From assembly GCA_023380755.1 (NCBI GenBank), contig JAMCSD010000006.1, positions 120,385-184,384 of the forward strand: a stretch of DNA of 64,000 bases. Reading direction: 5' to 3'. Origin of the DNA: Patescibacteria group bacterium. GTDB lineage: Bacteria; Patescibacteriota; Microgenomatia; UBA12405. The notes beneath the pieces are model-generated. The model was not told the DNA's origin. It ran no database searches and saw nothing but the letters and a program-made list of their open reading frames with translations. This document shows positions 4,501 through 61,893 of the stretch, piece after piece. The position numbers and the translations under genes are program-made. The stretch's first letter is position 1. Each line of letters starts with the position of its first letter.

Positions 4501-6012
4501 TTCCGTACTATCAGTACTGATCGTTCCTAAGTATTGGAACAAAAGAATATCGGTGGTGATTCTTGATTCGATTGGGGTTGTCGAATAGGTTCCCGAAGTT
4601 AGCCGTCCCCGCACATAAAACAGAGTCCGGCCGCTATTGAGGCTCGTTGCCGTCCAACTAGTCGGATCACTGCTCCAATAAACCGTTCCCGAAGTTGTCA
4701 GATTACTCACCCCGGTTACCGTTTCCGATACTCCCAGTCCCGCCCAGGCAGCACCGTTCCAGTATTCCCAAGTTATTGTCGGACTCGAGCCGCTGCCGTT
4801 TCGGTTCAAGTTAATATTAATACCCCGGAATTTCGACGTTGATCCAAAAGCAATATAATCCTGATTACCGGCAAAACTAATCGTATAATTTTTCGTAGCG
4901 CTATTTAAATATTCGTTATCCGATCCGGTATACCCGGCATCTGCCAGCTGAGTATAAACACTGCCGGAGTTGGCATAAAACCACGCCTCCGAGAAGGGGA
5001 GAATGTCATCGTTATAATTAGTTCCTTTGGTTTGAGTTACCCCGCCCACCGTTACCTGGGCCGGATCATCTTGCGACCGCCAATTTCTAATCTTAAAAGC
5101 CGGATCCAGCCGGTTATAAGTTCCGCCGTTTATTGTCAAATCAATTTGGATGTTATCCGCATTTAGAACGTAAGCCCCCTCTTGTTCATTAAAAAAGTCA
5201 CTGGTTCCCACCGAATATTCATTAGCATCAAACCAGCCGCTTCCTTTGGATAGTGAACCGCTGAAATCTGCTGGATTGCGGTAGTCTTGCATGTTGCTGG
5301 TTACCGTGCTGGCGGTCGACCGGTAATGTGACAAATCAAACAACACTGTTCCCGAGGTTCCCGTATTTTTTACCCATCCGTACCCTGACGAATGAATGCC
5401 GTCATCACCCCACCCGCCGTTCCCAAAATCATTCGGAGTCCAAGCTTCAATGTTAATTCCGGCAAAGTTATTGTTAGTCGTATCGCTTAATAGCCAGGTC
5501 TGATTAGTTCCATCAAATGTTTGCACTTGTGGAGCATTACTTGTTACCCCCACTTCTTCAGCTAAGTTGTAGTAATAAGTCCCGTTCCACCACATATGGA
5601 CGTAGCTTTTGGCGTCTCCCCAGGTCACCCACGAAACGCCTTGATTGGCATTAGAATTCAGGATTTTGGCCCTTGTCGGAGTCGACTCCAGCAGTTGAAA
5701 AGCTGTTGGTGTCTGTTGGGCCCAAAACCCGGCCAGGTTATCATGGTTATCTCCGCATGATCCGCTATTGCCCACCAAAGGAGTTTGGCCGTTATTAATT
5801 GAGGTGTGATACAGCTGTTTTCCAAAAGCCACATCGCAGTTTTTGGTCACTAACTTAACCGTCCCATTATCGGTGGTAATTGAGGTCGCATCTCGCGTAA
5901 TTGTTAACGAGGCTGCCTCCACCCCCCTAGGTAATACTAGCAAAAATATCCCTATCCATAGGCATAAAAATTTCCCAATTCCGCGCTTAATACTCACATT
6001 TACATCATACAA
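1516..6012 (-). CDS. Giant secreted or surface protein (1498 aa) made of repeated FN3/Ig-like beta-sandwich modules
   Basis: N-terminal signal peptide (LCLWIGIFLLVLPRGVEAAS). The composition is rich in Thr, Ser, Asn and Gly with repeated about 100-aa units carrying FN3-like motifs (KTYYYRAKWTDEDGNTGTS, TYHYMIELEDADGN, RYVLVVKGRDKVGN). It sits directly upstream of the ABC exporter genes and overlaps them. Confidence 0.6.
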   Translation of the reverse strand: MYDVNVSIKRGIGKFLCLWIGIFLLVLPRGVEAASLTITRDATSITTDNGTVKLVTKNCDVAFGKQLYHTSINNGQTPLVGNSGSCGDNHDNLAGFWAQQTPTAFQLLESTPTRAKILNSNANQGVSWVTWGDAKSYVHMWWNGTYYYNLAEEVGVTSNAPQVQTFDGTNQTWLLSDTTNNNFAGINIEAWTPNDFGNGGWGDDGIHSSGYGWVKNTGTSGTVLFDLSHYRSTASTVTSNMQDYRNPADFSGSLSKGSGWFDANEYSVGTSDFFNEQEGAYVLNADNIQIDLTINGGTYNRLDPAFKIRNWRSQDDPAQVTVGGVTQTKGTNYNDDILPFSEAWFYANSGSVYTQLADAGYTGSDNEYLNSATKNYTISFAGNQDYIAFGSTSKFRGININLNRNGSGSSPTITWEYWNGAAWAGLGVSETVTGVSNLTTSGTVYWSSDPTSWTATSLNSGRTLFYVRGRLTSGTYSTTPIESRITTDILLFQYLGTISTDSTEIFISHDNTPPTISAIGETTPTNDSTPTFTGTATDDYGTVSMVDYQVGATTSGGWANCSGSFNTSPVSFSCTVSPALTEGSYTVYFRATDSNGNTTSAGNYQTASLVVDLTRPTTNASGVGVSGHSSGDWLNAAPTITWTAGADNGGGSGIFGYCLALEATTIGSGSTGTSTHLDPATTGGALAGLDDGIVQTYCPFMTTYNSLNVGNIAGLTLTSGKEYYLSIKAVDQAGNVWSGDSSLYQDVAAFRYDNQLPTNPSGLSAPQTYKNSLSDFTIYWATSGVSAAKDNDSGIKGYQYQINDGKWYGTNHSGAEDCNDVLSPSTGSYTLDSNYDTLSTNNNGENTFRLRTWDNTCNVTTTYITAVLKYSGNAPSEPNSLTATPATNTDNSFAFSWTIPTTYSGLEGGLTYCYTVNAHPSALLCTGNWMTGTSLAAAAFATQYGANFLDVVAKDEAGNVNYGTYAEATFTANTSAPGAPRNTDVSDISIKSTSNWKLAVSWDAPTSVGSGIATYKVYRSATANAVCATTPSAFSVVGSTSGTTYTDTGLTQKTYYYCVTACDSANNCSAYSTTASKYPTGRYTSAASLTSGPGASSITTKKAKITWSTDRSSDSKVEYGTSSNSYQDEEPSNSSQVTDHTINLTNLTPGKTYYYRAKWTDEDGNTGTSDEKSFATQAAPSVSSVKESDISLSSALITMTVDNASKATIFYGKTSAYGGASSMNTATSESTYSVKLTKLDDGTTYHYMIELEDADGNKYDFEDHQFATLPRPTVSDIKIQQVINTAQPTILVSWNSNTELSSIITYYPDGMAGSAQDQVNLTMIKGLHQMIIKGLSDDTRYVLVVKGRDKVGNEADSDVQVFTTATDTRPPMISDLTIESKAVPPVSGAAEEISSQLLVSWTTDEPATSQIEFSEGAGDNYSQKSQKDLNLTLNHLVIVSSLTPSKVYHLRAISLDKAGNESHSSDMVTITAKGTDNALNLVFSNLQQAFGFIGPLSK

Positions 6013-16678: not shown

Positions 16679-18337
16679 ATGCTTATTTCCGATCAACAAC
16701 TTAGCCAAATTATTGTTAACCAAGGTCTTGTTGATAATAAAAAGCTAGAAGATATTATCGCCTTTGCCCGGAACGCCGATCTGCCGCTCTCTGAAGCCTT
16801 GTTAGAGAAAGACATCCTTTCCGATCTGGAACTAGGTCAGCTTTTGGCTGCTCATCTTAAGCTTCCCTTTATTAATCTTTCTGAACTCTCCATCCCTCAT
16901 GAACTTTGCCGAATTATCCCCGAAAACATTGCTAAATCTCAAAAAGTTATCTTATTTGACCGTAGTCCTACTGAAATTAAATTGGCTCTAGCCGACCCTG
17001 CCAATACCGACATCCAACAATCTGTTGCCCAAAAGACTGGTACCAAAGTTACCCCTTATTTAGCCACCCACCGGGATATTGAAAATGCCCTAAAGGTTTA
17101 CCGTCAGGATGTCCAGCAGACCTTTAATTCCATGTTGCGCAATCCTGAATTTGTTCCGGTCGCCGAAATTGCTGACCTCCTTATTGAATATGCCTACCAG
17201 GACAAAGCCTCCGATATCCATATTGAACCCGATGAAAAATACTGTCTCATTCGCTTTCGTCTTGATGGTGTCCTCCACGATATTCTCCGACTTCCTAAGC
17301 CTCTTCACGACCGGATTGTCACCCGCATCAAAGTTTTAGCTCGGTTGCGCACCGATGAGCACCTGACTCCCCAAGATGGCCGCCTCCGTCTCCAGCTCAC
17401 TTCAGAAAATTTGGATATCCGGGTTTCCATTGTCCCTGTAGCCGAAGGTGAAAAAGTCGTTTTAAGATTATTGTCTGCCCGTTCCCGTCAATTTTCTTTG
17501 ATGGATTTAGGGATGCGGTCAACAGACCTCAAAAAAGTCATGAATGCTATCAGTAAATCTTATGGCCTAGTCTTAGCCACCGGCCCTACCGGTTCCGGCA
17601 AAACCACTTCCATTTATTCTCTCCTTAAAATACTCAATACCCGCGATAAAAACATCACCACTATTGAAGATCCGGTTGAATATCGACTCTCCGGTGTTAA
17701 CCAAATCCAGGTCAACCCCCGCTCCAATCTCAGTTTTGCCAATGGCTTACGTTCCATACTCCGTCAGGATCCTAACATAATATTTGTAGGAGAGATACGC
17801 GATAATGACACTGCCGCCATTGGGGTTAACGCCGCTCTGACCGGTCACCTGGTCCTTTCCACTCTCCACACCAATGATGCCGCCACCGCCTTACCGCGAT
17901 TTATTGATATGAAAGTTGAGCCTTTTTTGGTGGCCTCGACGGTCAACGTCGTCATTGCCCAGCGTTTAGTCCGCAAAGTTTGTAAACACTGTCGGCGACC
18001 CCAAGAAATTTCCCTAACCGATCTTCGCCAATTGCTCCCTCCAGATGTCCTTGCCCACAACTTTGGCCGCCGTCCCAAAATCACTGCTTTTACCGGTGAC
18101 GGTTGTGATTTATGCCACCATACTGGTTATTCCGGCCGCATCGGTATCTTTGAAGTCATGGAAGTCACCGCCGCCATCCGCAATTTAATTACCGACAAAA
18201 AGGACTCCACCCTGATTTCCGACTGCGCCCAAAAAGAGGGGATGACCACCATGCTCGATGACGGTTTGCAAAAAGTCCTGACCGGGGACACCACTCTCGA
18301 CGAAATCCTCCGCGTTACAAAAACAGAAACCATATGA
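16679..18337 (+). CDS. pilB: Type IV pilus assembly ATPase PilB (GspE family)
   Basis: N-terminal GspII_E_N-like domain, Walker A GPTGSGKTT, Asp and His boxes, and a tetracysteine motif CKHC...CDLC. Confidence 0.85.
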   Translation: MLISDQQLSQIIVNQGLVDNKKLEDIIAFARNADLPLSEALLEKDILSDLELGQLLAAHLKLPFINLSELSIPHELCRIIPENIAKSQKVILFDRSPTEIKLALADPANTDIQQSVAQKTGTKVTPYLATHRDIENALKVYRQDVQQTFNSMLRNPEFVPVAEIADLLIEYAYQDKASDIHIEPDEKYCLIRFRLDGVLHDILRLPKPLHDRIVTRIKVLARLRTDEHLTPQDGRLRLQLTSENLDIRVSIVPVAEGEKVVLRLLSARSRQFSLMDLGMRSTDLKKVMNAISKSYGLVLATGPTGSGKTTSIYSLLKILNTRDKNITTIEDPVEYRLSGVNQIQVNPRSNLSFANGLRSILRQDPNIIFVGEIRDNDTAAIGVNAALTGHLVLSTLHTNDAATALPRFIDMKVEPFLVASTVNVVIAQRLVRKVCKHCRRPQEISLTDLRQLLPPDVLAHNFGRRPKITAFTGDGCDLCHHTGYSGRIGIFEVMEVTAAIRNLITDKKDSTLISDCAQKEGMTTMLDDGLQKVLTGDTTLDEILRVTKTETI

Positions 18338-28116: not shown

Positions 28117-29940
28117 ATGAGTATTTACCTTAAGCATACGCCAATTTTGCTATGTCTTATGGTTTTAGCCAGCGCCATTTTCTTGGCCCGGCCTTCCTTG
28201 GCGGCCGTTAGCTCCTGGCAAAAAAGCGCCAGTTTTACTCCCGCCTACCCCGACGATTTTAGCAGTACCAACTTTCAGCAGTCACTCAAAAATTACCAAA
28301 GTATCGGTGGCAATTATGTTACCTTAATCATCACTTTGCTCCAAGATAACGAAGGCTCGACCACTATTTATACCGGCAACAATACCCCTTCCGACCAGTC
28401 ATTAGCCAATGCTACTAAATACGCCCAATCTCTGGGGCTGAATGTTGCTTATAAAATCCATATTGATCTAGTCAATAACCACTGGCGGGCCAATATTAAC
28501 CCTTCAGACCGGGCTACCTGGTTTTCCAACTACAATAACTGGCTTTCCCATTATGCAACCTTGGCCGCCGCTAACGGTGTCAATGAATTATTTATCGGTG
28601 CTGAGTTATACGATATGACTAGTACCAAAGTTAATTCCGGCAATACGGGCTATTGGAATAATATGATAGCCGGCGTTCGAAAAATTTTTTCCGGCAAACT
28701 TTCCTATAGCGCCCAAAGAGGGGACGGTCCTTATTACAACGAATGGGGTGAAATCGGCTTTTGGAATAATCTTGATTACTTGGGTATTTCTGCGTATTAC
28801 CCCCTCGCCACCAATCTCAGCAATCCTACGGTCAATGATTATATGGATTCCTGGAAATCGATTGATAGCACTTGGTTTGCGCCGATGTATCAACAATACC
28901 AAAAACCGATTTTATTCAGTGAATTGGGTTACCGCTCCGAGACTGGCACCCACTATCACCCTTTTGACGGCAACACCAACGGCGCGCCCAACATGCAGGA
29001 GCAGGCCGATCTTTATCAGGCCATGCTGCAATACTGGAATAATCAAAACTATGTCCAAGGCCTCCATTTATGGGATTGGCAAACCGATCCTAATGCTGGC
29101 GGTCCCAATGATAACCGTTATACTCCCCAAAACAAACCCGCCCAGTCAGTCATCGCCTCCTGGTTTCAGGGTGGCAGCACTCCCAATCCGACCACTACTC
29201 CCGCTCCCACGGCTGCCCCTGCCCCAACTTCTGCTCCCGGCCAATTTACTTTGTCGGCAGCTATTAACCCCGCCAATCCCACACTTAACCAACCCCTGAC
29301 TGTTACTAGCAGCGTCGCTAATTCCGGCACGGTCAATGATGCCATTGTTGATATTGAAATTTATAATAGCCAAAACCAGCAAGTCTTTCAAAAGTACTTT
29401 GAACACCAAAATCTGTCAAGCACGGCCATTAGTTACCCCCTTTCCTGGCAAACCGGTCAAACCGGTGCCTATCGGGTAGCCATCGGCATCTTCAACAATA
29501 ACTGGTCGGTTAATTACCTCTGGAATAACCAGCTGACCACCTTCACCGTCGGTGCTGTAGCTACTCCGCCTTCGCCTACTCCTACCCCCACCACCACTCC
29601 TACATTACCCACTCCCACCTCCGCTCCTCCCGCTCCCGTCTCCGGCAGCCTAAATATCTGGTGGCCGACCAGCGGTGCCACCCTTTCCGGTGTCCAGCCA
29701 TTTAAGGCCATATTGACCAATAACGATATAAATAATTACCACTTGTATTGGCAGGTTGATGGCGGCGGTCTTAATGAAATGAACAATAGTACTCAAGATT
29801 ACCCTCACAAAGAAACCTCAGTTGATGTTAGCTCCTGGAACTGGCGGGGAAATGGCCCTTACACCATTAATTTTATTGCCAAAGACAATAGTGGCAACAT
29901 CCTCCAGCAACTCTCAGTTTCCATCAATGTCAGTCATTAG
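28117..29940 (+). CDS. Secreted modular glycoside hydrolase ((beta/alpha)8, clan GH-A-like) with Pro/Thr linkers and a conserved 95-aa C-terminal domain
   Basis: Signal peptide, candidate catalytic Glu in GAELYD and FSELGY, PTPTPTTTP linkers, and a C-terminal module also found in the GH5 enzyme at 56121-57701. Confidence 0.45.
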   Translation: MSIYLKHTPILLCLMVLASAIFLARPSLAAVSSWQKSASFTPAYPDDFSSTNFQQSLKNYQSIGGNYVTLIITLLQDNEGSTTIYTGNNTPSDQSLANATKYAQSLGLNVAYKIHIDLVNNHWRANINPSDRATWFSNYNNWLSHYATLAAANGVNELFIGAELYDMTSTKVNSGNTGYWNNMIAGVRKIFSGKLSYSAQRGDGPYYNEWGEIGFWNNLDYLGISAYYPLATNLSNPTVNDYMDSWKSIDSTWFAPMYQQYQKPILFSELGYRSETGTHYHPFDGNTNGAPNMQEQADLYQAMLQYWNNQNYVQGLHLWDWQTDPNAGGPNDNRYTPQNKPAQSVIASWFQGGSTPNPTTTPAPTAAPAPTSAPGQFTLSAAINPANPTLNQPLTVTSSVANSGTVNDAIVDIEIYNSQNQQVFQKYFEHQNLSSTAISYPLSWQTGQTGAYRVAIGIFNNNWSVNYLWNNQLTTFTVGAVATPPSPTPTPTTTPTLPTPTSAPPAPVSGSLNIWWPTSGATLSGVQPFKAILTNNDINNYHLYWQVDGGGLNEMNNSTQDYPHKETSVDVSSWNWRGNGPYTINFIAKDNSGNILQQLSVSINVSH

Positions 29941-35483: not shown

Positions 35484-37631
35484 CTAGTACGAGTTAACCA
35501 CTTCAACCGTTTCTGTCTTAGTTGCTACCAGTATCTTCGCATCCACCCCCCAAATTTCCTCCGGGGTCACTATCACCGGGTTGATCTCTAAATCGCTCAC
35601 CAATTCTTCCGCTTCCACCAGCTGACCCATTTCCACCATCAATTTAACCAATTTTTCTACCGGGTAAGTTGGGCCGCCGCGATATCCGGCCAAAATTTTA
35701 TAAACCTTTGACTGCTTAATTAACCCCAATGCTTTCGTAGGGTTTAGCGGTAGGGAACACAAATTTTTATCCGCAATCAACTCTACCAGTTTCCCACCCA
35801 TGCCAAACAACATAATCGGCCCGAAAGTTGGATCTCTTTTAATCCCCACAATTACTTCCACCGCGGCCCTGAGCGGGATCTCTTCTTGTAACTCGATTCC
35901 GATTTCCCTCGGAATAGTATTTTTTAACGATTTAATTGTTTCTTGCATTTTATTCCAGGCGGCTTCTAAGGCAACCTCGTCCTTAATTTGTCCGATTACT
36001 CCTCCCACCTCACTTTTGTGCAAGATAAAAGGGCTGGCCAGTTTTATGACCACCCCGCCCGGTTTTGTTTGCCAAAAATTCTTGGCTTCAGTGAACGTAG
36101 TGACTACCCGGCTTTCGGGTGTTTTGATTGACAGATTCCTTAGTAGTTCCTCGGCTTCCAGCGGGTCGCAGGCTGCCCGTTTCTCTTGGGACACCTTTTC
36201 GATTATCGGAGTCACTGCCGAGAAATCAGGCATATTTTCTGCCGTTTTCTCCTCGTTAACTTGTATCTGCCGCCATTGCTCCCATTTATAAAGTACCGAA
36301 AGTGTTTTAATCGCCCTCTCGGGGAACCTAAAAGTGGGAATCGATAGTTTATTTAGTATGGCTTCTCCGGCCATCGTGTAGCCACCGCCGATAAAGGAGG
36401 CCACCACTGGTTTCTCGTATCTTTTTGACAAATTACCAATTAGTTCTGCTGTTTCGGCAATTTGTGTCATTAGTTGCGGCGTTAATATTACCACCACCGC
36501 ATCCACCGTATTTTCTTGCAAAACAATTTCCGCTGCTTTCACAAACCGGTCTGCCAGGGCATCCCCTAAAATATCCACCGGGTTAAACAGGCTGGCTGTT
36601 CGCGGCAAATACTCGGCTAACCTTTTTTCTGTTTCTTCCGAAAAGGAGGCTAACTTTAGGCCCTCATTTTCAATCGAATCCGTGGTCAGTACTGCTGGCC
36701 CCCCGGCATTCGAGACAATGGCCACGTTAGGGCCTTTAGGCATTTTTGACCAGGCAAAAGCCCGCGAATAATCAAAAAAATCTTCTAATTCCGAGCACCT
36801 AATAATTCCTGCTTCGGCCGCCACCGCTTCCAAAACACTGTCTTCTCCGGCGATTGATCCGGTATGTGATTTCATCGCGTGGGCTGCCGCTTTTGATTTC
36901 CCTGGTTTCAACAAAAACACCGGTTGCTTCAGGGATAACTGTCGACAGTCTTGTAAAAATTTTTTTCCTTCGGCAATTGACTCCAAGTAAATTCCTATCG
37001 GCCCCGGGTTTTCCTGTGTTAGCCAATACTCCAAAAAATCATTTTCCGTTAAACCGCCCTTATTCCCCAAGGAAACAAAATCACTAAAACCTAAACCAAT
37101 GGCCTGAAACCAGTCAAACAAACTGGTTGCCAATGCCCCCGATTGGCTAATGAAACGCAGAGTCCCCGGCAGCATTTTAATCTTGCCAAAAGTGGCGTTT
37201 AATGGGGTTCGCGTGCTGGCCAGCCCTAAACAATTTGGCCCCACAATGTTCACCTGATACTTAATGGCGATGCTTTTTAACTCTTCTTCCAACCTGACGC
37301 CTTCGCCGCCCACTTCCTTAAAACCGGCGCTATAAATCACCACATTTTTTACTCCCTTTTTTCCGGCCGCCTCCGCTTCTGGCAGCACCCCGGCCGCTGG
37401 TATAGCAATTAACACTACATCCACTGCTTCCGGCAATTCTTCAATATGGGGATAACATTTCAAGCCGTTTATATCCGAATACTTAGGATTAATGGGGTAA
37501 ATATTGCCCTTAAAACCGCCTTCTAAAAGATTGTTAAGAACAATTGCTCCCACTTTGGTTTTTTCGGGTGAAGCTCCAATAACCGCCACGGAGTGGGGGA
37601 GAAATAAAGATTCCAGATTACTCAACGTCAC
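35484..37631 (-). CDS. Acetyl-CoA synthetase (ADP-forming), fused alpha/beta subunits
   Basis: CoA-binding N-terminus SVAVIGASPEKTKVGAIVLNNLLEGGFKGNIYPINPKY, a succinyl-CoA-synthetase-like flavodoxin domain and a C-terminal ATP-grasp domain, 715 aa in total. Confidence 0.8.
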   Translation of the reverse strand: MTLSNLESLFLPHSVAVIGASPEKTKVGAIVLNNLLEGGFKGNIYPINPKYSDINGLKCYPHIEELPEAVDVVLIAIPAAGVLPEAEAAGKKGVKNVVIYSAGFKEVGGEGVRLEEELKSIAIKYQVNIVGPNCLGLASTRTPLNATFGKIKMLPGTLRFISQSGALATSLFDWFQAIGLGFSDFVSLGNKGGLTENDFLEYWLTQENPGPIGIYLESIAEGKKFLQDCRQLSLKQPVFLLKPGKSKAAAHAMKSHTGSIAGEDSVLEAVAAEAGIIRCSELEDFFDYSRAFAWSKMPKGPNVAIVSNAGGPAVLTTDSIENEGLKLASFSEETEKRLAEYLPRTASLFNPVDILGDALADRFVKAAEIVLQENTVDAVVVILTPQLMTQIAETAELIGNLSKRYEKPVVASFIGGGYTMAGEAILNKLSIPTFRFPERAIKTLSVLYKWEQWRQIQVNEEKTAENMPDFSAVTPIIEKVSQEKRAACDPLEAEELLRNLSIKTPESRVVTTFTEAKNFWQTKPGGVVIKLASPFILHKSEVGGVIGQIKDEVALEAAWNKMQETIKSLKNTIPREIGIELQEEIPLRAAVEVIVGIKRDPTFGPIMLFGMGGKLVELIADKNLCSLPLNPTKALGLIKQSKVYKILAGYRGGPTYPVEKLVKLMVEMGQLVEAEELVSDLEINPVIVTPEEIWGVDAKILVATKTETVEVVNSY

Positions 37632-38564: not shown

Positions 38565-39071
38565 CTATACCTCGGAAACTACTGACCGCATCAGTGTTCC
38601 CGCCAGCATCGTCAGCCCATCCGCTGTCACCATTTCTTCTCCTAAACTTTGTTCTAAAATCTTAGCCTCTTCCTCGGCTCCCAACAATTTACACCAATTA
38701 ATTAATCCTTGGTACATGGCCATTTCGCTATGTTCCACCTTCAATGCCGCCTCAATTACCGCCATATCTTTTAAGTAGGCATCATCAATTTTCTTCAAGC
38801 CTCCGCCCCCTTCGCTGACCAGTGACAGGAAGGTTGGATCCTTTTGTTTTTTGGTATTTAATCCTAAGCTTTGAAAAATACTTTCCAACCGCGTTGTTTG
38901 ATTTTTTGTTTGCTCGAGATGGTATCCCAGCGCTCGGATTAATTTATCCTCATGGGATTCCTTCATCATCTTGGGCAATTCTTCCGTGATGGTGTTTTCG
39001 ATAAAGTACATTTTTTGTAGTCCCATTTCTAACAAATCTTTCTTTGATACGGCCATACCCACCTCCTCCAA
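38565..39071 (-). CDS. Ferritin-like YciE/YciF (DUF892) family protein
   Basis: All-helical protein of DUF892 length with a matching residue pattern. Confidence 0.5.
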   Translation of the reverse strand: MEEVGMAVSKKDLLEMGLQKMYFIENTITEELPKMMKESHEDKLIRALGYHLEQTKNQTTRLESIFQSLGLNTKKQKDPTFLSLVSEGGGGLKKIDDAYLKDMAVIEAALKVEHSEMAMYQGLINWCKLLGAEEEAKILEQSLGEEMVTADGLTMLAGTLMRSVVSEV

Positions 39072-39189: not shown

Positions 39190-39660
39190 ATGAAAAAAAC
39201 ATTTATTGCTGGATTCGTCGTCGTTTCCTTTGTGGCCTATGCCTTTTTGGAGCAAGTCAAATCATGGGGTTTTGGTGATGATTCCACCCTCCCTCCTTCC
39301 CGTTCTAATTCGGCTCCTAATCCCAATCTTACCACGCTCAATTCTGGCTCCTCTCCCAAGCCCCAAACTGCCGCTGGCCACTTTAAGAACGGCCAATATA
39401 CCGGCGATTCCACCGATGCCTTTTATGGCAATGTCCAGGTAAGGGTCACCATTAGCAGTGGCAAAATTACTAACGTTCAGTTTCTGGATTACCCTCAAGA
39501 CCGCGACCGTTCCCTTGCCATCAATACTGTTGCCATGCCCCAACTTACCAGTGAAGCCATCCAAGCCCAATCTGCCAACGTCGATGTCGTCTCTGGAGCT
39601 ACTGCCACCAGCCAAGCTTTTGTTCAATCATTACAATCCGCCCTTAACCAGGCCCAATAA
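39190..39660 (+). CDS. Membrane-anchored FMN-binding domain protein with ApbE flavinylation motif
   Basis: N-terminal anchor, Ser/Pro linker, then an FMN_bind domain ending in VDVVSGATATS, the Dxx[ST]GA[ST] covalent-FMN acceptor motif. Confidence 0.7.
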   Translation: MKKTFIAGFVVVSFVAYAFLEQVKSWGFGDDSTLPPSRSNSAPNPNLTTLNSGSSPKPQTAAGHFKNGQYTGDSTDAFYGNVQVRVTISSGKITNVQFLDYPQDRDRSLAINTVAMPQLTSEAIQAQSANVDVVSGATATSQAFVQSLQSALNQAQ

Positions 39661-39665
39661 CTAAT

Positions 39666-40421
39666 ATGAAAGACACCCGCCTCCTCATGGGCATGCCCAT
39701 CACCGTGGAGATTGCCGATCCTGAATCTACTTTAGATTCCCTTAGCGAAGTCTTTGCTTATTTCCATTATGTTGACGAAAAATTTAGCCTTTACAAAAAC
39801 ACCAGCGAAATTGCCCAAATAAACCACCGGAAACTTCCGGAATCTCAATATAGTCCGGACATGAAAACTGTCTTTGCGCTCTGTGAGGAGACAAAAAAAT
39901 TAACTGATGGCTTTTTTGATATCAAGCATTCCGGCCGCCTTGATCCTTCCGGCTTGGTCAAGGGCTGGGCAATTCATAACGCCGCCCAAAAACTGCGCCA
40001 CCACGGATATCGGCATTTCTATGTCGAAGCCGGCGGCGACATCGAGGTTGCCGGGCTTAGCTCACGGCACCAGCCCTGGCAAATCGGTATCCGTAACCCT
40101 TTTAATATCCGCCAAATCGTTAAAGTCGTTGCACTCACTAATGGCGGCATCGCCACTTCTGGTACCTATTTTCGCGGCCAACACGTCTATAATCCCAAAA
40201 AATTCCATCGGCCGATTACTGACATTTTAAGCCTCACCGTTATCGGCCCCGATATTTATGAAGCCGACCGTTTTGCCACCGCCGCTTTTGCCATGGGACG
40301 TCCCGGCATCGAATTTATTGAATCTCTGCCCGGTTTTGAAGGTTATCAAATTGATAACCAGGGTGTCGCCACTTTCACCACTGCTTTTAATCGTTATCTT
40401 TCCGATGCTAAAGATTATTGA
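39666..40421 (+). CDS. apbE: FAD:protein FMN transferase ApbE
   Basis: ApbE-family motifs (DPSGLVKGWA, GGIATSGTY) in a 251-aa protein immediately downstream of its likely substrate. Confidence 0.7.
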   Translation: MKDTRLLMGMPITVEIADPESTLDSLSEVFAYFHYVDEKFSLYKNTSEIAQINHRKLPESQYSPDMKTVFALCEETKKLTDGFFDIKHSGRLDPSGLVKGWAIHNAAQKLRHHGYRHFYVEAGGDIEVAGLSSRHQPWQIGIRNPFNIRQIVKVVALTNGGIATSGTYFRGQHVYNPKKFHRPITDILSLTVIGPDIYEADRFATAAFAMGRPGIEFIESLPGFEGYQIDNQGVATFTTAFNRYLSDAKDY

Positions 40422-40443
40422 CCGCTATCTAAATATCATCACT

Positions 40444-41922
40444 ATGTACCGGCTCATTTTGTATTATCTTTTAGTCCTCTTACTTGGGGCTGCCTTTTTA
40501 AGTTACTTGGGTATTCTCCACTATAGTGTTTTTTCCATCCTGGCCTCGGCTTTGTTTCTGATTGTCTTAAGTTGGAGCACCAACACCCTTTTTGCCGCCG
40601 CTTACCAGGCTCCGACTAATGTCGAATCGGTTTACATTTCCGCCTTAATCCTGGCCTTAATTCTGACTCCGGCCCAAACTCCCCATGATTATCTTTTTTT
40701 AGGTTGGGCCGCCATTTTCACTATGGCTTCCAAATATTTACTTAATATTGGCAAAAAACACCTTTTTAATCCGGTCGCTATTGCCGTGGTTATCACCGCC
40801 CTGATGATCAAACAATCCGCCAGCTGGTGGGTGGGCACTCTATATATGTTGCCCTTTGTAGTGATCGGTGGCTTTCTTATTGTCCGTAAAATCCGCCGCT
40901 TTAATTTAGTCCTCAGTTTCTTTATCGTCGCTTTGTTTACCATTGTCGGGATCGGCCTAATTCAAGGCCAATCAGTTATCAGCCTGTTGCGGATTGCCCT
41001 GCTCGATTCCCCCTTTTTCTTTTTTGCCTTTGTCATGCTTACCGAGCCGCTCACTACTCCCCCCACCCGAACTTGGCAAATTCTTTACGGGGCCCTCGTC
41101 GGTTTTCTTTTTGCTCCCCAAATCCACGTTGGCCATCTGTATACCACCCCCGAAATTGCCTTAAGTTTAGGTAACTTATTTTCTTACGGTGTCAGTCCGA
41201 AAGCTAAGCTTTTATTAAGTCTGGAGCAAAAAATCCGGCTTACCCCCGATACTTACGATTTTGTCTTCTCCAAACCTCCCCGTTTCAGTTATCGTCCGGG
41301 TCAGTATATGGAATGGACCTTAGCCCACCCCCGCACCGATGATCGTGGTAACCGTCGTTATTTCACCTTGGCCTCATCTCCCACTGAAGATACTCTTCGC
41401 TTAGGCATTAAATTTAACGACCACAGCAGCAGCTTTAAAAATAACCTTTTATCTCTAAGTTCCGAGACTCCGATTATGGCCGGGCAGTTAGCCGGTGACT
41501 TCGTTCTCCCCCGTAATCGTCAGCAAAAAATTGTTTTTATGGCTGGCGGTATCGGTATTACCCCTTTTCGCAGCATGGTTAAATACTTAATCGATCGGGG
41601 CGAAAAACGGGACATCGTTCTTTTTTATGCCAACAAAGAAGCCTCGGAAATTGTTTACCGGGATATCTTTGACCGTGGCCGTTCCGTCGGCCTGCGGCCG
41701 GTTTATGTTTTGACCGACCAGGCGAAAATTCCTCCCCAATGGCCTGGCTTAAGCGGCCGGATTACCGCCGCGGTCATCACCCAGGAAGTTCCCGATTACC
41801 GGGAGCGCACCTTTTATCTTTCTGGTCCTAATGCCATGGTCACTGCCTATCGGGAAATGCTGAGGCATTTAGGTTTACCTTCGTCCCAAGTTAAAACCGA
41901 CTTTTTCCCTGGCTTTGCCTAA
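40444..41922 (+). CDS. Membrane-anchored FNR-like FAD/NAD(P)H oxidoreductase (polytopic N-terminal domain plus FAD_binding_6/NAD_binding_1)
   Basis: About eight TM helices N-terminally. RYFTLASSP (the RxY[ST] FAD site) and GGIGITP (NAD(P) site) follow. The ATG at 40444 is preferred over the track start, which overlaps apbE out of frame. Confidence 0.65.
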   Translation: MYRLILYYLLVLLLGAAFLSYLGILHYSVFSILASALFLIVLSWSTNTLFAAAYQAPTNVESVYISALILALILTPAQTPHDYLFLGWAAIFTMASKYLLNIGKKHLFNPVAIAVVITALMIKQSASWWVGTLYMLPFVVIGGFLIVRKIRRFNLVLSFFIVALFTIVGIGLIQGQSVISLLRIALLDSPFFFFAFVMLTEPLTTPPTRTWQILYGALVGFLFAPQIHVGHLYTTPEIALSLGNLFSYGVSPKAKLLLSLEQKIRLTPDTYDFVFSKPPRFSYRPGQYMEWTLAHPRTDDRGNRRYFTLASSPTEDTLRLGIKFNDHSSSFKNNLLSLSSETPIMAGQLAGDFVLPRNRQQKIVFMAGGIGITPFRSMVKYLIDRGEKRDIVLFYANKEASEIVYRDIFDRGRSVGLRPVYVLTDQAKIPPQWPGLSGRITAAVITQEVPDYRERTFYLSGPNAMVTAYREMLRHLGLPSSQVKTDFFPGFA

Positions 41923-45628: not shown

Positions 45629-46624
45629 ATGTCAAAATTAGTGGCCGAAATTAACAAACGGAAGGTTTACTCAGATAAGGAAGTTCGAGCCATCGTCGAC
45701 ACCAAAGTCTACTTTGTCGATGGTAGTTGGTGCGATGTCGCCACCGGTGAAACCGTCAACAACGGCCCTGGTTCTATAAGCTTCGATAATCCAGGTGCTA
45801 CCGCTGAAAAGATCACTGTCGGCCCAACCCCCTTCATGGCTAGTTCTTTAGAAGTTCGTGGCGTAATAGCCGATGTCGAAATCAATGTCAAATCTAGTCC
45901 CACCATCGAGGTCGAAATTACGGGTCCGAAAAAGGAAGTCGAGGCCATCAAGGTCGCCAAAGTTGGGGATACGGTCGTCGTCGAAAGCGAGGATCGCGAC
46001 ACCGGCTTTTCCAGAAGCCAGGGGACGACAGTCATTGCTGGCAGTGGTAACGTGGTGACTCGTATTGGTAGGGCCCGTGGTATGGTTATTTCCGGTGATC
46101 TGGTCATGGGTCGTCGGCGGACGGTCATTTCCACCGGAGATATGTATGTCTCGGGCGATAATGTCATTCTCTCCGGAGGCGGCGAGGCCAGCACCAAGGT
46201 CATCATCGGTGTGCCTCAAAAGACGGGTGTCACCGTTACCAAGGTTACCGGTAATACCGTTATCGGCGATACCCAAGGTCGGGTGTCCGTCAGTGGTAAC
46301 AATGGTGAAATGAGGATTGGTCGTGTTGGCCCTGCCAAACTTGGAGTTTCCGGTAGTAGTGACATTAGCGTCAAAGAAGTCACTGGCTCCATGCTCGACA
46401 TCCGTATCATGGGTTCTGGCGATATCCGGATCGAAGCTGGTCAAGTGGATCAGTTGTCGGTCGAAGTCATGGGCTCCGGTGATGCCCGCTTTCATGGCCG
46501 CGCCACTGACAGCAACCTAAGCATCATGGGTTCCGGCGACATTTGGGTGGCCCATTCGGTCAACAAGCCAGTCGAAGATGTCATGGGCTCAGGGGATATT
46601 CACGTTAGTCGAGTTGGCAATTAA
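45629..46624 (+). CDS. DUF2807/DUF4097 (GIN-domain) beta-helical repeat protein
   Basis: Periodic V/I-x-G-SGD-I/A repeats (MGSGDIRI, VMGSGDARF, IMGSGDIWV, VMGSGDIHV). The gene lies in the GC-elevated block. Confidence 0.5.
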   Translation: MSKLVAEINKRKVYSDKEVRAIVDTKVYFVDGSWCDVATGETVNNGPGSISFDNPGATAEKITVGPTPFMASSLEVRGVIADVEINVKSSPTIEVEITGPKKEVEAIKVAKVGDTVVVESEDRDTGFSRSQGTTVIAGSGNVVTRIGRARGMVISGDLVMGRRRTVISTGDMYVSGDNVILSGGGEASTKVIIGVPQKTGVTVTKVTGNTVIGDTQGRVSVSGNNGEMRIGRVGPAKLGVSGSSDISVKEVTGSMLDIRIMGSGDIRIEAGQVDQLSVEVMGSGDARFHGRATDSNLSIMGSGDIWVAHSVNKPVEDVMGSGDIHVSRVGN

Positions 46625-56120: not shown

Positions 56121-57716
<1,596 letters not shown>

Positions 57717-57749
57717 CTAACACGCCCCGGTTGACCGATGCAAATCCGT

Positions 57750-59201
57750 TTAGTCGTACCGTAATTTATAGACCCGAATATCAATAGATGCCGGAAATTC
57801 CATACTTTTTAATCGCTGATAATGGTGGTCCATGTAATCCACTATCTTTCCTTGGTAACCCTGATCATAAGACAATACCAAATAGATATTATCGTAAACT
57901 TTAGCGTAATCTTTAAGTTGGGAAACTAGCTCATTGGTCGTGAAAGGAGGAATCGGCCCTTGCACATAACGGTTCCAATGGGGAATAGTATCTATTCTGG
58001 CCAAACCTCCATAATAATATTCAATCGGGTAAACCGTGAAAGGTGCACTCACTGCGATAATATCGTGAGGGGTAGCATGGGTTACCAGGTATTTATCCAC
58101 CTCTCGATAACTCTCCTTTACTGGTGTCATGGCCGAGGTGTCTTGGAAGTTTAATGAGAGCAGCATCAAGGCAATTATCACTACCGACACGATGGAAATT
58201 ACCTGCCGTCCAAAATTAATTAGAATCCATGCCAGCAGCGTAAACAAAGACGGGGTCACAAAGATCAGATAACGGGGTAAAAATATTGGTTTAAAAAAAG
58301 AAAATAAATAAATTAACAACACGGGCAGAATGCTGATCACCACAAAATAATCCGTCCGCTGAAGTTTCACTGTTACCTGTCGCGTGAAAATAAAAAAGAT
58401 AATCATTAAGAATAATGGCCATAAAGAAATCACTATCGATTGGATTAACTGATTTTGAAAACCGATAAAGAAATTGAAATATATTTGCAGCAAGTTAAAA
58501 GAATTCGGCTGTGGGATTATTGGTTGGGTGTTGGCCGCCAATCCCAAAGTGTACACATAATATGCCCATGGTAAAAACAGGTTTACCATACAAGCCCCCA
58601 GCAATATAAAGGTTATTGTTAATTGGCGGCTGCTCTCAAACTTTTTGATTAACAGGTATATTGCCTGGGACAGCAACATGAAGGCGAAAAAATAGTGACT
58701 ATATATTCCCAAGAGACCGGTAATAAAATAACCCCATCGCCCTTTTTCTCCTTTACTGTCCACTATCTGTAAAAAATAATAATGGTTGACTGTGGCCAAC
58801 AAAGTGAGGAGGGTATAGGTCCGTGCTTCTTGGCTATACCATAAGACAAAAGGGGAGAGGGCAAATAAAGCCGTTCCCAAAATTGCTGTTGCTCGGTTTG
58901 TTACTCGTTTAATCAGAAAATACAAAAACGGTAACGTCAGGATAAAAAATATCAACGAAAGCAATCGGGAAATAACTATATCCGTCCCCAAAATTTGCAT
59001 CCAGAAATGCAAAATAAGCGTATATAACGGCGTTTGAACGTCTTGTCCGTTAATCTTTAATAATGTTGGTACCGACTTCGTGGCCACCCAGATTGATTGA
59101 GCCTCATCAAGACGTATGGACTGGGAATAAAGATAAAATAAATTAATTAATAAAGAGGCAATGACTACGGCATAAATGATAAAAACTTCTAGTCTTTTCA
59201 T
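57750..59201 (-). CDS. GT-C fold membrane glycosyltransferase (ArnT/PMT_2-like)
   Basis: About 12 TM helices and an RLDEAQS motif in the first extracytoplasmic loop. Confidence 0.5.
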   Translation of the reverse strand: MKRLEVFIIYAVVIASLLINLFYLYSQSIRLDEAQSIWVATKSVPTLLKINGQDVQTPLYTLILHFWMQILGTDIVISRLLSLIFFILTLPFLYFLIKRVTNRATAILGTALFALSPFVLWYSQEARTYTLLTLLATVNHYYFLQIVDSKGEKGRWGYFITGLLGIYSHYFFAFMLLSQAIYLLIKKFESSRQLTITFILLGACMVNLFLPWAYYVYTLGLAANTQPIIPQPNSFNLLQIYFNFFIGFQNQLIQSIVISLWPLFLMIIFFIFTRQVTVKLQRTDYFVVISILPVLLIYLFSFFKPIFLPRYLIFVTPSLFTLLAWILINFGRQVISIVSVVIIALMLLSLNFQDTSAMTPVKESYREVDKYLVTHATPHDIIAVSAPFTVYPIEYYYGGLARIDTIPHWNRYVQGPIPPFTTNELVSQLKDYAKVYDNIYLVLSYDQGYQGKIVDYMDHHYQRLKSMEFPASIDIRVYKLRYD

Positions 59202-60715
59202 ACATTTGCTTGCGTCGCCACGGCCATCTTGTTGGCTTTATGAAATGGTAATAAATTTGCTGCTACCAGCACGTAAGGCATAAACATGGCGACATTAAAT
59301 AGTGCCCAAGCCATATTGGTGGCTACTGATGGATTAATCTCTTCCCGGTGGATGGCTAACACTGAGCCAGCCGCCACCAAAATAATATAAATAATATGGG
59401 GAAAACTTAGTTTCAGATAATTGCCACTTTGGGCTTGTTTTGGCGTGACTGAAAACGACACTGTCCTACGCATCAATACCGAAAAAATCGCCATCAGTTG
59501 TAAGTACCATGAGGAATAGGAAAAAGAAAAAGTTTTAAAACTAATATCCGCCCCCGCTGCCAGGTTAAGAGTATAAAGATTGATAAATATAAACGGTAAA
59601 AAATAAACTGCAAAACTGGTGGTTGATACCCCTACCGGCTGCACCGCAAAGAATAAATATAAAAGAGGCATCAGCAGGTCGATTAGGATCACAAAACCAT
59701 TAAAATAATACAGTGCTGAAGCCAGGTACTGCACCTTTTGACCTAATGTGAGCCCCTTTTTAAAAAATGGATTTTGATTAAATAACACCTCTAATGACCC
59801 CCGGGCCCAGCGAAATTGCTGTTTGTGATATGACAGTAAATCTTGGGGAGCTAACCCCTTAGCTAAAACTTCGGGAAGGTATCTCGAGCGCCAGCCGGCT
59901 TGGTGGATGTACAGTGAAGTTAAAAAATCTTCCGCAATATTTCTTTCTTCCATCCCCCCCACCTTTTCCAACGCTTTTCTTCTTATCACTACATTGGTGC
60001 CGCAGATAAACGAAGCATTACTTTTTTCCTTGCCTCGCATAATCGGTCCGAAAAACAATTTTTGTTGATCCCAAGCCGCGGCCGTCACTAAATTTTCTCC
60101 AGAGTTTACGTAAAATTGAGGTGTTTGCACAAAGCCCATCATCTGGTCTTTAAAAAAGGGAACTGTTCGTACTAGAAATTCCGGTTCCGGAACCATATCC
60201 GCGTCAAAAATGGCGACCAAATCACTTTTGGTCTCCCGGAGGGCATTATTAATATTGCCTGCTTTGGCCCCCCCAGCTACTTTCCGGGTGATGCAGTGAA
60301 TACCTAATTTTTTGGCCATCGCCTCAATCTGCTGCCAATTGTCTTTTTTGGCTACATAGCCGTCATTTAAGATATATATTTCCTTATTGCGGTAATCCAT
60401 CTCTTTGGCTGCTTGGGCTGTTTTTTCCACAACTTCAACCGGTTCTCCGGCTACTGTAATAAACACCGCGACACTCGGTTGGTAAATTTTATCGATGACT
60501 ATGACCGTAATTTTGTTGGCTGGCCAGACAGTAAACCAAAAAGTAAGAGCCATGATTACATGGTATATTTCCCCGATAAATAGGAGCGTGTATAACCACA
60601 GGTTACTGATGTGTGCCGGGGTCACCCACCAACTGAAATAAAAAATCGCTACCAAAACATCAACTAATATCAGTAGTCGGCTGACTCGATGGTAAGAAAT
60701 TGTTTCTAAATGCAT
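59198..60715 (-). CDS. Processive GT2 beta-glycan synthase (cellulose-synthase-like catalytic subunit)
   Basis: Motifs DAD and QTPQ, QxxRW (KQQFRWARG), with N- and C-terminal TM helices. The 4-nt overlap with the downstream GT-C gene indicates coupling. Confidence 0.7.
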   Translation of the reverse strand: MHLETISYHRVSRLLILVDVLVAIFYFSWWVTPAHISNLWLYTLLFIGEIYHVIMALTFWFTVWPANKITVIVIDKIYQPSVAVFITVAGEPVEVVEKTAQAAKEMDYRNKEIYILNDGYVAKKDNWQQIEAMAKKLGIHCITRKVAGGAKAGNINNALRETKSDLVAIFDADMVPEPEFLVRTVPFFKDQMMGFVQTPQFYVNSGENLVTAAAWDQQKLFFGPIMRGKEKSNASFICGTNVVIRRKALEKVGGMEERNIAEDFLTSLYIHQAGWRSRYLPEVLAKGLAPQDLLSYHKQQFRWARGSLEVLFNQNPFFKKGLTLGQKVQYLASALYYFNGFVILIDLLMPLLYLFFAVQPVGVSTTSFAVYFLPFIFINLYTLNLAAGADISFKTFSFSYSSWYLQLMAIFSVLMRRTVSFSVTPKQAQSGNYLKLSFPHIIYIILVAAGSVLAIHREEINPSVATNMAWALFNVAMFMPYVLVAANLLPFHKANKMAVATQANV

Positions 60716-60717
60716 AA

Positions 60718-61893
60718 TTAAAAAGTCACTAAATAATTAAGGTACAGGGCTGTCCCAAACCATAACCAATTTGTTTCGTAATACGGCAGATCATTACGGA
60801 ACGAGTTAGTGTCGTTAGAGTATAAATTAATAATTTTGGTGTTATAAATTACCTGCGCCTCATTCTGGTTTACTAGCCGAAAAAAATATAAAGCCGTGGC
60901 ATACATCACTGGATCTTCGTTGGGATTTAAAGAATTTCCCGCATGGTCAAAACCAGTTGGCAGCTTTTTATTCTGTTGATAAAATCCCTCTAAATACTTT
61001 AATGACTGAAGATAAGTTTGGGCTGAGGTATCTTTATTCCAGACATAATCGACTGCCACCCGCCACGGCACTCTCATCGCGTCAAAGGAATAGTTTGTCG
61101 TTAACCCCGGCGTATTGCTGGCAGTAATACTCCCATTCGGTTTACTTACGGCCACCCAATCTGGTGGCAACCCCACTGCCTTGTTTTTATCCAATGGAAT
61201 GTTCGACGAAACTGTTAATAATTCGTAAGCTGGGTTTATTAAACTGCTCCAGTCATTTTGAGTGTCAATCTTGGCAAAAATTCGCCAAGCATAAGGAGCT
61301 AAATACGAAGGATTAACAATATCTTTATCCGACCCTATCGCCCAATTTCCGGCTACTAAATACCTTTTTCCATTCACCACATCAGTCTCCGTTTTCCAAA
61401 TATCCGCCATCATTGGTTTGGCCTGGTCAGTATATGAAGAATTCCGCCACCGTTCTCCGGCCAAAACTAATGCCAGCGCCGTATCCGTGTCCGCATCCGC
61501 AGCACTATTATTACCGCCATTAGGTAAGAACCCATAACTGTTTTTATTTGGGTCCAATTTTCCCCACCGCCACCCGAGCAAATTATCCCCTGGGCGTTTC
61601 ATATTATCTTTTGTCCAGCTCCAAACTTTGTCAAAAGTAGCTTTATCGTCCATCCACACGGATTGCAACAAGGCGTAACTTTGACCTTCGGAAGTAGTGA
61701 TGTCGCCCTGGCTGTAGTCGATTACCCGGCCATCATTATTAATAAAGCGCGTCTTATAATTTTCCCACGATGAGGTCAGCAGGGTATAAGGAGAAAAAGT
61801 TCTCGTTTGTTGGCTAAATTTCCGCACATACAATACACTGACTAACAATCCCAAGCCAATAATAATGAAGATCAACCCTAAATACTTTTTCAT
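60718..61893 (-). CDS. Glycoside hydrolase family 8 endoglucanase (BcsZ-like), membrane-anchored
   Basis: The GH8 catalytic motif TSEGQSYAL is present, with an N-terminal anchor. Confidence 0.65.
   Translation of the reverse strand: MKKYLGLIFIIIGLGLLVSVLYVRKFSQQTRTFSPYTLLTSSWENYKTRFINNDGRVIDYSQGDITTSEGQSYALLQSVWMDDKATFDKVWSWTKDNMKRPGDNLLGWRWGKLDPNKNSYGFLPNGGNNSAADADTDTALALVLAGERWRNSSYTDQAKPMMADIWKTETDVVNGKRYLVAGNWAIGSDKDIVNPSYLAPYAWRIFAKIDTQNDWSSLINPAYELLTVSSNIPLDKNKAVGLPPDWVAVSKPNGSITASNTPGLTTNYSFDAMRVPWRVAVDYVWNKDTSAQTYLQSLKYLEGFYQQNKKLPTGFDHAGNSLNPNEDPVMYATALYFFRLVNQNEAQVIYNTKIINLYSNDTNSFRNDLPYYETNWLWFGTALYLNYLVTF

Follow-up and report, generated by a model that had tools for sequence, protein, structure and literature searches.

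Background

The NQR/RNF-like system has been described computationally by Meheust et al. 2021 (eLife, PMC8238504) and Huang et al. 2024 (mSystems, PMC11334425). The sections of the first paper that deal with it count 127 such clusters, mainly from Actinobacteria and the candidate phyla radiation, and treat them as lacking the remaining Nqr/Rnf subunits (PMC8238504). In the second, the part devoted to the Ktedonobacter racemifer complex gives an AlphaFold-multimer model (PMC10979944, PMC11334425) in which the flavinylated subunit is docked on the outer face (PMC11334425). There the membrane subunit is described as being without the NqrB/RnfD flavinylation site, and the flavin mononucleotide (FMN) of the outer subunit is proposed to sample the non-covalent flavin site of the membrane subunit (PMC10979944, PMC11334425). 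Here we analyse an operon of three genes in a 64-kb stretch of Patescibacteria DNA (contig JAMCSD010000006.1; the whole stretch, 64,000 nucleotides (nt), is called the window below). The operon is a case of this system as outlined in those sections, and the published points were reproduced independently on the window proteins.

We consider, with a probability of about 0.7, that the operon encodes a two-subunit 'Nqr/Rnf-like' transmembrane electron conduit together with a dedicated flavin transferase. Five features of the NQR/RNF-like system, as set out in the Methods of Meheust et al. (PMC8238504) and, for the loss of threonine, in the corresponding part of Huang et al. (PMC11334425), were all found in it. 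These are an N-terminal membrane domain of the PF03116 (NqrB/RnfD) type, a C-terminal cytosolic NAD-binding domain (PF00175) in the same protein, clustering with FMN_bind and/or ApbE (here with both, the FMN_bind protein being NqrC/RnfG-like), no further Nqr/Rnf subunits in the cluster (A/E, D/E, B, C), and loss of the flavinylation Thr of the B/D-like domain. The carrier lineages (candidate phyla radiation, Chloroflexota, Actinobacteria) are the same as well. No difference in architecture was found.

Operon layout and gene calls

The three open reading frames (ORFs) reported in the original prediction are all present on the + strand (39190-41922), as an FMN_bind gene, apbE and a gene that fuses a membrane domain to a ferredoxin-NADP reductase-type (FNR) module:

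39190..39660, + strand: gene 1, NqrC/RnfG-like FMN_bind protein, 156 amino acids (aa), PF04205; homologues lie directly upstream of ApbE in other genomes
39666..40421, + strand: gene 2, short leaderless ApbE (flavin adenine dinucleotide (FAD):protein FMN transferase), 251 aa, PF02424
40405..41922, + strand: gene 3, RnfD/NqrB-like membrane domain plus FNR-type FAD/NAD(P)H module, 505 aa, start corrected by homologues

The unit is tightly packed. The start of apbE lies 5 nt past the TAA stop of the FMN_bind gene (a spacing of 6 nt had been given for an ApbE gene that is indeed just downstream), and the first 17 nt of gene 3 lie within the end of apbE. The gene 3 ORF is readable from 40258, but its start was assigned to the ATG at 40405, 147 nt further downstream. 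The best 120 gene 3 homologues are 505-506 aa long and align from residue 1 of this start with 100% query coverage, and the N-terminal residues D6, L9 and T13 are conserved among homologues. Gene 3 therefore encodes one polypeptide of 505 aa with a membrane part of about 270 aa, and the fusion gene of the original prediction had been started 147 nt too far upstream, with a membrane part of about 280 aa. A protein identical to the gene 3 product is also found on a public Logan contig of 132 kb (SRR10278331_68, locus L082), where it is called from the internal Met at 40444 (492 aa); the end of this contig cuts through apbE, and its downstream genes match those of the window.

Relatives were collected by a scan of one genome per species, which gave at least 438 loci; 80 of these were fetched, and 75 were untruncated by a contig end. 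The order FMN_bind, ApbE, fusion gene was kept on one strand in 64 of the 75 untruncated loci, with genes usually overlapping or nearly abutting. These loci with identical gene order come from several phyla, far more than chance could account for. Fusion of FMN_bind to ApbE by a conserved frameshift or read-through was ruled out, as both spacing and frame between the two genes vary among loci. Around the operon, a promoter scan returned fewer promoter-like sites than were found in shuffled sequence, and a terminator scan gave no convincing terminator.

The FMN-binding subunit

The gene 1 product was matched by Pfam PF04205 (FMN_bind, E 4.9e-12, residues 79-153) and partially by the NCBIfam models for PplA (2e-06) and RnfG (2.7e-05). 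Its signal anchor is N-terminal and its FMN-binding domain C-terminal, with a Pro/Ser/Thr-rich linker between them, and it has the domain, the acceptor motif and the export signal or anchor by which NqrC/RnfG/PplA-type flavinylated FMN_bind domains are recognised. Two elements were located:

39202..39258, + strand: N-terminal hydrophobic helix, residues 5-23, FIAGFVVVSFVAYAFLEQV, preceded by MKK; Kyte-Doolittle peak 1.92; predicted N-in/C-out anchor
39583..39603, + strand: flavinylation motif DVVSGAT (D-x-x-S-G-A-T), residues 132-138, 18 residues before the C-terminus

With the motif defined as in the relevant part of PMC12052999, the FMN phosphoester link is predicted to form at Thr138 (nt 39601-39603). 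The SGAT acceptor motif of the original prediction is thus real, although it stands 18 residues before the C-terminus and not at the very end. Loss of the acceptor among orthologues, named there as a finding that would speak against the reading, was not seen: 67 of the 70 partner FMN_bind proteins carry an [STA]G[AS][ST] motif, the acceptor being Thr in 44 and Ser in 23.

The flanks of the anchor carry, as a mean over the 70 FMN_bind homologues, +2.4/-0.5 charges on the N side and +0.8/-1.4 on the C side, and an N-in charge bias was found in 59 of the 70. In Actinobacteria (Agreia, Arthrobacter) the N-terminus of the FMN_bind partner is instead a lipoprotein signal with a lipobox (VTGC, AGC). 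The FMN_bind domain should therefore be outside; it is predicted from these signals to be extracytoplasmic, in agreement with the published placement.

The Agreia and Arthrobacter loci with lipoprotein signals are L074, L076, L078 and L080 (FMN_bind genes at about 4490-5157; e.g. LLGVVTGC, ILGTAGC). In two Arthrobacter loci the lipoprotein signal is preceded by a twin-arginine-like motif (PRRFPF, HRRALT), a sequence feature that hints at twin-arginine (Tat) export of a pre-flavinylated FMN_bind protein.

The fusion protein

The following features were assigned to the gene 3 product:

40405..41214, + strand: membrane domain, residues 1-270, about 10 helices, RnfD/NqrB fold (PF03116, Foldseek, hhalign)
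40813..40830, + strand: short outer loop QSASWW, residues 137-142, replacing the ~80-residue RnfD loop with the flavinylated Thr187 (global hhalign with RsxD)
41215..41919, + strand: cytoplasmic FNR module, PF00175; C-terminal sequence DFFPGFA
41356-41382, + strand: FAD motif RYFTLASSP
41545-41565, + strand: NAD(P)H motif GGIGITP

The membrane domain scored E 7.6e-06 and 25.9 bits against PF03116 (NQR2_RnfD_RnfE; gathering cut-off 27.7), and homologues of gene 3 carry a precomputed PF03116 match. NCBIfam gave weak matches to RsxD, RnfD and NqrB, and a sequence-profile search of the PDB returned Azotobacter RnfD only, again weakly (E 0.025). In a profile alignment with E. coli RsxD by hhalign, residues 155-266 aligned to RsxD 231-345 with a probability of 90%, and this alignment takes in the LTEPLTTPPT/LTDPVTASTT region. 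Foldseek with an AlphaFold2 model of full-length gene 3 (predicted local distance difference test (pLDDT) 86.7) yielded FNR-domain matches only, and the membrane domain was therefore modelled separately (pLDDT 87.4). The 15 best PDB matches of the domain alone were all RnfD or NqrB, with template modelling (TM) scores (TMq) of 0.58-0.73 over about 280-335 columns, and only non-significant matches followed. On the strength of this model the domain is of the RnfD/NqrB fold, and the module therefore belongs to an already described class and not to a new one; the description of the protein as an 'unusual membrane reductase' had to be given up in view of Pfam, Foldseek and hhalign.

The domain differs from RnfD in one outer loop. 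In the global RsxD alignment, the window protein runs from the conserved KH-FNP helix directly into QSASWW and then into the next helix; among homologues, the third position of the equivalent loop is S, T or N. With the ~80-residue outer loop and its Thr187 missing, the domain cannot carry a covalent FMN of its own as RnfD and NqrB do. By sequence inspection the loops of the fusion protein follow the positive-inside rule (KKH, RKIRR and PKAK inside), which places the FNR module in the cytoplasm and the QSASWW loop outside.

The FNR module was matched by PF00175 (NAD_binding_1, E 5.2e-14, 53.2 bits), and the best structural matches of the full-length model were NqrF FAD/NAD domains, flavohaemoglobin and b5 reductase (E 1e-13 to 1e-17). 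The module is an ordinary FNR fold, with the NqrF FAD/NAD domain among its closest structural matches. RYFTLASSP is the R-x-Y-[ST] FAD motif usual in the FNR family; on this ground and on that of the structural matches it was rejected as a cytoplasmic flavinylation site. The fusion of a membrane domain to an FNR module with RYFTLASSP and GGIGITP was accordingly as first described.

A membrane domain followed by an FNR module is also the order of the NOX/FRE enzymes, and DUOX and SpNOX were among the full-length Foldseek matches, as could be expected of a haem-based ferric-reductase/NOX-type (MsrQ-like) domain fused to FNR. However, the DUOX and SpNOX matches stem from the FNR module only, and the membrane domain alone matches RnfD/NqrB only. 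There was no PF01794 match. The membrane domain of the window protein is free of cysteine and no Cys is conserved in the fusion protein among homologues. Haem-ligating His pairs, which the original prediction had suggested looking for, were absent as a conserved feature of the domain: H119 is its sole invariant His and H241 is nearly invariant, both in loops and on opposite sides, with no bis-His pairs within helices. The membrane domain therefore holds no haem or iron-sulphur (Fe-S) site, and a haem-type identity, which would also call for a different fold, was rejected as effectively refuted. The MsrQ-like/PepSY-like membrane cytochromes with PF00175 remain comparable in outline, having a membrane domain, a cytoplasmic NAD-binding module, a flavinylated outer partner and VIT1 as an occasional neighbour, but theirs are bis-His haems, and the window domain has no such His pairs and another fold.

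ApbE and the missing export signal

The gene 2 product was matched by PF02424 (E 5.7e-41, 141 bits) and by the ApbEs in the PDB (E ~1e-13), relative to which about 55 residues are missing between query residues 86 and 92. The catalytic triad of V. cholerae ApbE is Ser241/His257/Asp285 according to the part of PMC12052999 concerned with it; in the alignment to that enzyme (6NXI) the equivalents are S165, H173 and D201. All three are invariant in 67/67 operon-linked ApbE homologues. By fold, family and catalytic residues gene 2 is an ApbE FAD:protein FMN transferase with an intact triad, and it is predicted to act on the gene 1 product. The operon-linked enzyme is this shortened form in most lineages (~247 aa, ~55 residues less than canonical ApbE). 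A longer ApbE (~290 aa) together with a divergent FMN_bind protein (VSGSS/VAGSS) was found in some Saccharibacteria, Uhrbacteria and Actinobacteria loci and in several metagenome-assembled genomes (MAGs) labelled Gammaproteobacteria.

Neither a signal peptide nor a lipobox was detected in any of the 67 operon-linked homologues, nor a hydrophobic stretch before MG[MT]/IGT, even at maximal ORF extension; this check used hydropathy alone. The gene 2 ORF is not extendable upstream. In lacking such a signal the enzyme differs from the extracytosolic ApbEs (secreted or lipoprotein) of NQR, RNF and Listeria extracellular electron transfer (EET), and 'extracytosolic flavinylation', as the original prediction had it, is therefore not straightforward for the gene 2 enzyme: the substrate is predicted outside, as was claimed, but its ApbE is leaderless throughout. 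Listeria EET (Ndh2, demethylmenaquinone (DMK), EetA/B, PplA, FmnB) otherwise resembles the window system in that electrons from NADH reach, outside a monoderm membrane, an FMN_bind protein flavinylated by ApbE, and its PplA is the NCBIfam model partially matched by gene 1. It differs in using quinone and EetA/B, not an RnfD-like domain, and its FmnB is an exported lipoprotein.

A leaderless ApbE would suit an assembly that faces the cytoplasm as a whole, in which the FMN_bind domain lies inside, is flavinylated there, and belongs to a membrane-attached NAD(P)H-oxidising flavoprotein with a membrane or cytoplasmic acceptor. All 67 enzymes without signal peptide or lipobox keep their triad, and the portion of PMC12052999 on such enzymes describes cytoplasmic ApbEs that act on cytoplasmic FMN_bind domains. 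One of these, from Klebsiella pneumoniae, has no signal peptide and conserved catalytic residues (same portion of PMC12052999); its substrate is a soluble cytoplasmic fumarate reductase, whereas the window-type substrate has a signal anchor or lipoprotein signal, and the window ApbE is shorter by ~55 residues. We regard an inward-facing assembly as improbable. The lysine pair and transmembrane anchor of the FMN_bind protein, the N-in bias and the actinobacterial lipoprotein signals all argue against the cytoplasmic FMN_bind domain that the original prediction had listed among the findings contrary to it, as does the Pro/Ser/Thr-rich linker behind the anchor. The FMN site of RnfD/NqrB is on the outer side, and the fusion shares that topology because its FNR module must be inside. 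The published AlphaFold-multimer model, as presented in PMC11334425, likewise docks the subunit on the outer face.

If the substrate is exported, as the conduit reading predicts, the ApbE of the cluster may be cytoplasmic in every lineage examined and the RnfG-like subunit flavinylated before or during export, a proposal from sequence that we hold to be possible but rather unlikely. The leaderless ApbEs described in PMC12052999 have cytoplasmic substrates; the same text reports that ApbE accepts seven-residue tags, so flavinylation of an unfolded chain before export is conceivable. Pre-export flavinylation could act on the short linear motif near the C-terminus of the RnfG-like subunit. Alternatively, the folded subunit could be flavinylated ahead of Tat export where RR motifs exist, as in the two Arthrobacter loci. 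Tat was rejected as a general explanation of export, most FMN_bind anchors having KK or KR and not RR. The absence of an export signal on the cluster ApbE is documented here and is not discussed in the sections of PMC8238504 and PMC11334425 on this system.

Distribution and conserved neighbours

The loci come from many Patescibacteria lineages and from Chloroflexota (among them the cultured Dictyobacter aurantiacus and Ktedonospora formicarum), Alphaproteobacteria (including Mesorhizobium and Kaistia), Spirochaetota and Actinobacteria (Agreia, Arthrobacter). An exhaustive profile search with the membrane domain against 1.84 billion representative proteins, clustered at 50% identity, gave 578 clusters at E<=1e-30, a number that rose to 1335 at E<=1e-10; among the matches listed, most are ~500 aa long. 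The gene 3 product is 55-68% identical to its nearest relatives, ~505-aa fusions named RnfD or ferredoxin-NADP reductase in their sources. Judged by sequence and structure models, the operon is thus a relative, at this identity, of a published and computationally described system. In one locus from a MAG labelled Candidatus Acidiferrales (L007, 4955-5955), two tandem FMN_bind genes, each with D-I-[VI]-S-G-A-T, stand directly upstream of the fusion gene, and no ApbE gene was detected beside them.

Neighbours were searched by all-against-all clustering of the ORFs in the 80 loci and by Pfam scans of two genes per side. An OmpR-type response regulator and a histidine kinase stand beside the operon in about a fifth of the loci (16-22/80; e.g. 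among the flanks of L003, L001, L009 and L032). Other recurrent neighbours were a MacB/FtsX ABC permease (21 of 80) and an HlyD adaptor (10), and a minority of loci had metal-related genes (heavy-metal P-type ATPase 6, VIT1 4, Nramp 3). The set leans weakly towards metal handling, as had been suggested in the part of Meheust et al. on gene context (PMC8238504).

These neighbours also bear on the idea that the RnfD-like domain is mainly a channel or transporter, with the FNR module and the flavoprotein partner as redox regulators. Its fold is related to that of the urea transporters, which were the next structural neighbours after RnfD/NqrB in Foldseek, though non-significant (E >=1). However, significant structural matches were to the redox subunits RnfD and NqrB only, and no transport-related conserved neighbour was found in the 80 loci. 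Electron transfer is indicated by the close and conserved linkage to ApbE and a flavinylated partner, and a transport role appears very unlikely. A better match to an unrelated transporter family, which had been put forward as a ground for abandoning the original prediction, was not obtained.

Proposed electron path and comparison with Rnf and Na+-NQR

The fusion protein and the FMN_bind protein correspond to the arm RnfC-RnfD-RnfG of Rnf, or NqrF-NqrB-NqrC of Na+-NQR. Shared are the fold of the membrane subunit, with the TDP/TEP-type motif region aligning, an anchored FMN_bind partner with an ApbE motif, and an NqrF-like FNR module. The window system differs in being without A/E (D/E) subunits and Fe-S clusters, in the direct fusion of its NAD(P)H module with the membrane domain, and in the deletion of the ~80-residue loop with the covalent-FMN Thr; a one-way flow of electrons, as opposed to a U-shaped one, is predicted for it, and nothing found points to ion pumping.

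By homology with the RnfC-RnfD-RnfG arm, the path and direction of electron flow may be as follows. NAD(P)H would reduce FAD in the FNR module; electrons would then cross the membrane via a non-covalent flavin in the RnfD-like domain and reach the ApbE-attached FMN on Thr138 of the anchored subunit. As proposed by Huang et al. 2024 for their complex, the Thr138-linked FMN might occupy or visit the outer flavin site of the RnfD-like domain, because that domain has lost its flavinylation loop, and could then hand its electrons to an external acceptor. Such a path would be the RnfC-RnfD-RnfG arm of Rnf run one way, and no ion-pumping partner is in evidence. None of the three genes encodes the acceptor; the most plausible candidates are ferric iron or some other metal (assimilatory reduction) and a general sink by which a fermentative cell regenerates NAD(P)+. 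The core of the original prediction, a conduit related to NQR/RNF from cytoplasmic NAD(P)H to a flavinylated outer protein with no acceptor named, agrees with the accounts of the system given in PMC8238504 and PMC11334425.

Several points weigh against a conduit of this kind. The PF03116 score of the membrane domain lies just under the gathering cut-off (25.9 against 27.7 bits), and the N-terminal half of the domain was not alignable to RnfD by sequence in either the PDB profile search or hhalign. The flavin content assumed for the membrane domain is carried over from the Rnf arm by homology. The predicted combination of a leaderless ApbE with an exported substrate leaves one biogenesis step unexplained. 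No conserved acceptor or partner gene beyond the three was found in the 80 loci, where neighbours were heterogeneous only, and no experimental work on the NQR/RNF-like system could be found in the literature.

Given the homology of two subunits to RnfD/NqrB and RnfG/NqrC, and a view of the genome limited to 64 kb, the genes might also be what is left of, or an accessory to, a complete Rnf or Na+-NQR complex, working with A/E, B and C subunits encoded elsewhere. Within the window, however, neither a six-subunit operon nor an RnfA/E or NqrD/E pair nor Fe-S subunits were found. With RsxA, B, C, G and E of E. coli as phmmer queries no match was obtained in the 64 kb, and RsxD alone matched, to gene 3. 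No other Rnf/Nqr subunit, Fe-S motif or haem motif accompanies the three-gene unit, which is self-contained and conserved in phyla including Patescibacteria. The D-like domain already includes the NADH-binding function by fusion and has lost the flavinylation loop common to every Rnf/Nqr complex, and the passages of PMC8238504 on these clusters treat them as being without other subunits. The chance that the genes are such a remnant is accordingly judged to be slight in the extreme.

Other features of the window

Genes next to the operon are unrelated to the system. Upstream lie a DUF892 ferritin-like protein, a trypsin-like protease and an ADP-forming acetyl-CoA synthetase, and downstream GreA, a PAP2 phosphatase, a diacylglycerol kinase and a SRAP peptidase. 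The following features were recorded in the window:

38565-39071, - strand: DUF892 (YciE/YciF-type ferritin-like) protein, divergent from the operon with a 118-nt spacer
35484-37631, - strand: ADP-forming acetyl-CoA synthetase, 715 aa, with CoA_binding, Succ_CoA_lig and ATP-grasp_5 domains, 1.5 kb upstream of the operon
45629-46624, + strand: DUF2807/DUF4097 (adhesin-head or 'toastrack') protein, 331 aa, with an internal repeat ending MGSGDI/GSGD
16679-18337, + strand: type IV pilus/type II secretion system ATPase (T2SSE, E 4e-126)
56121-61893, - strand: block of GH5 cellulase, PMT_2 glycosyltransferase, cellulose-synthase-like GT2 and GH8
28117-29940: GH113

The DUF892 gene is not a conserved neighbour of the operon in other genomes. 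ADP-forming acetyl-CoA synthetase is typical of fermenters that make ATP from acetyl-CoA, and its presence 1.5 kb upstream fits a fermentative host. Many large ORFs of the window had no Pfam match. A genome of the Patescibacteria type is suggested, though not proved, by the gene content (a type IV pilus ATPase, PMT_2 glycosyltransferases, numerous orphan ORFs) together with the nearest homologues. No tRNA genes or Rfam matches were found in the 64 kb. GC skew was negative in nearly every 2-kb bin (cumulative about -4), regardless of local gene orientation.

Significance

For annotation, the genes are best named as Nqr/Rnf-like complex subunits plus ApbE, and not as 'RnfD' or 'ferredoxin-NADP reductase'. 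The system is common (578 clusters at the stricter threshold) and is the smallest known relative of the Rnf/Nqr machines; as it consists of two proteins and flavins only, it is a good model for how RnfD/NqrB-type subunits carry electrons. What is left of value in it is its biochemistry and the puzzle of the leaderless ApbE. If pre-export flavinylation does occur, it would offer a way of making extracytosolic flavoproteins with no FAD required outside the cell, which would be attractive for Patescibacteria with their tiny genomes. In organisms that lack a respiratory chain, many Patescibacteria among them, the Nqr/Rnf-like system is probably one of only a few ways to carry NAD(P)H electrons across the membrane, and such a route could serve metal reduction and uptake, or redox balancing.

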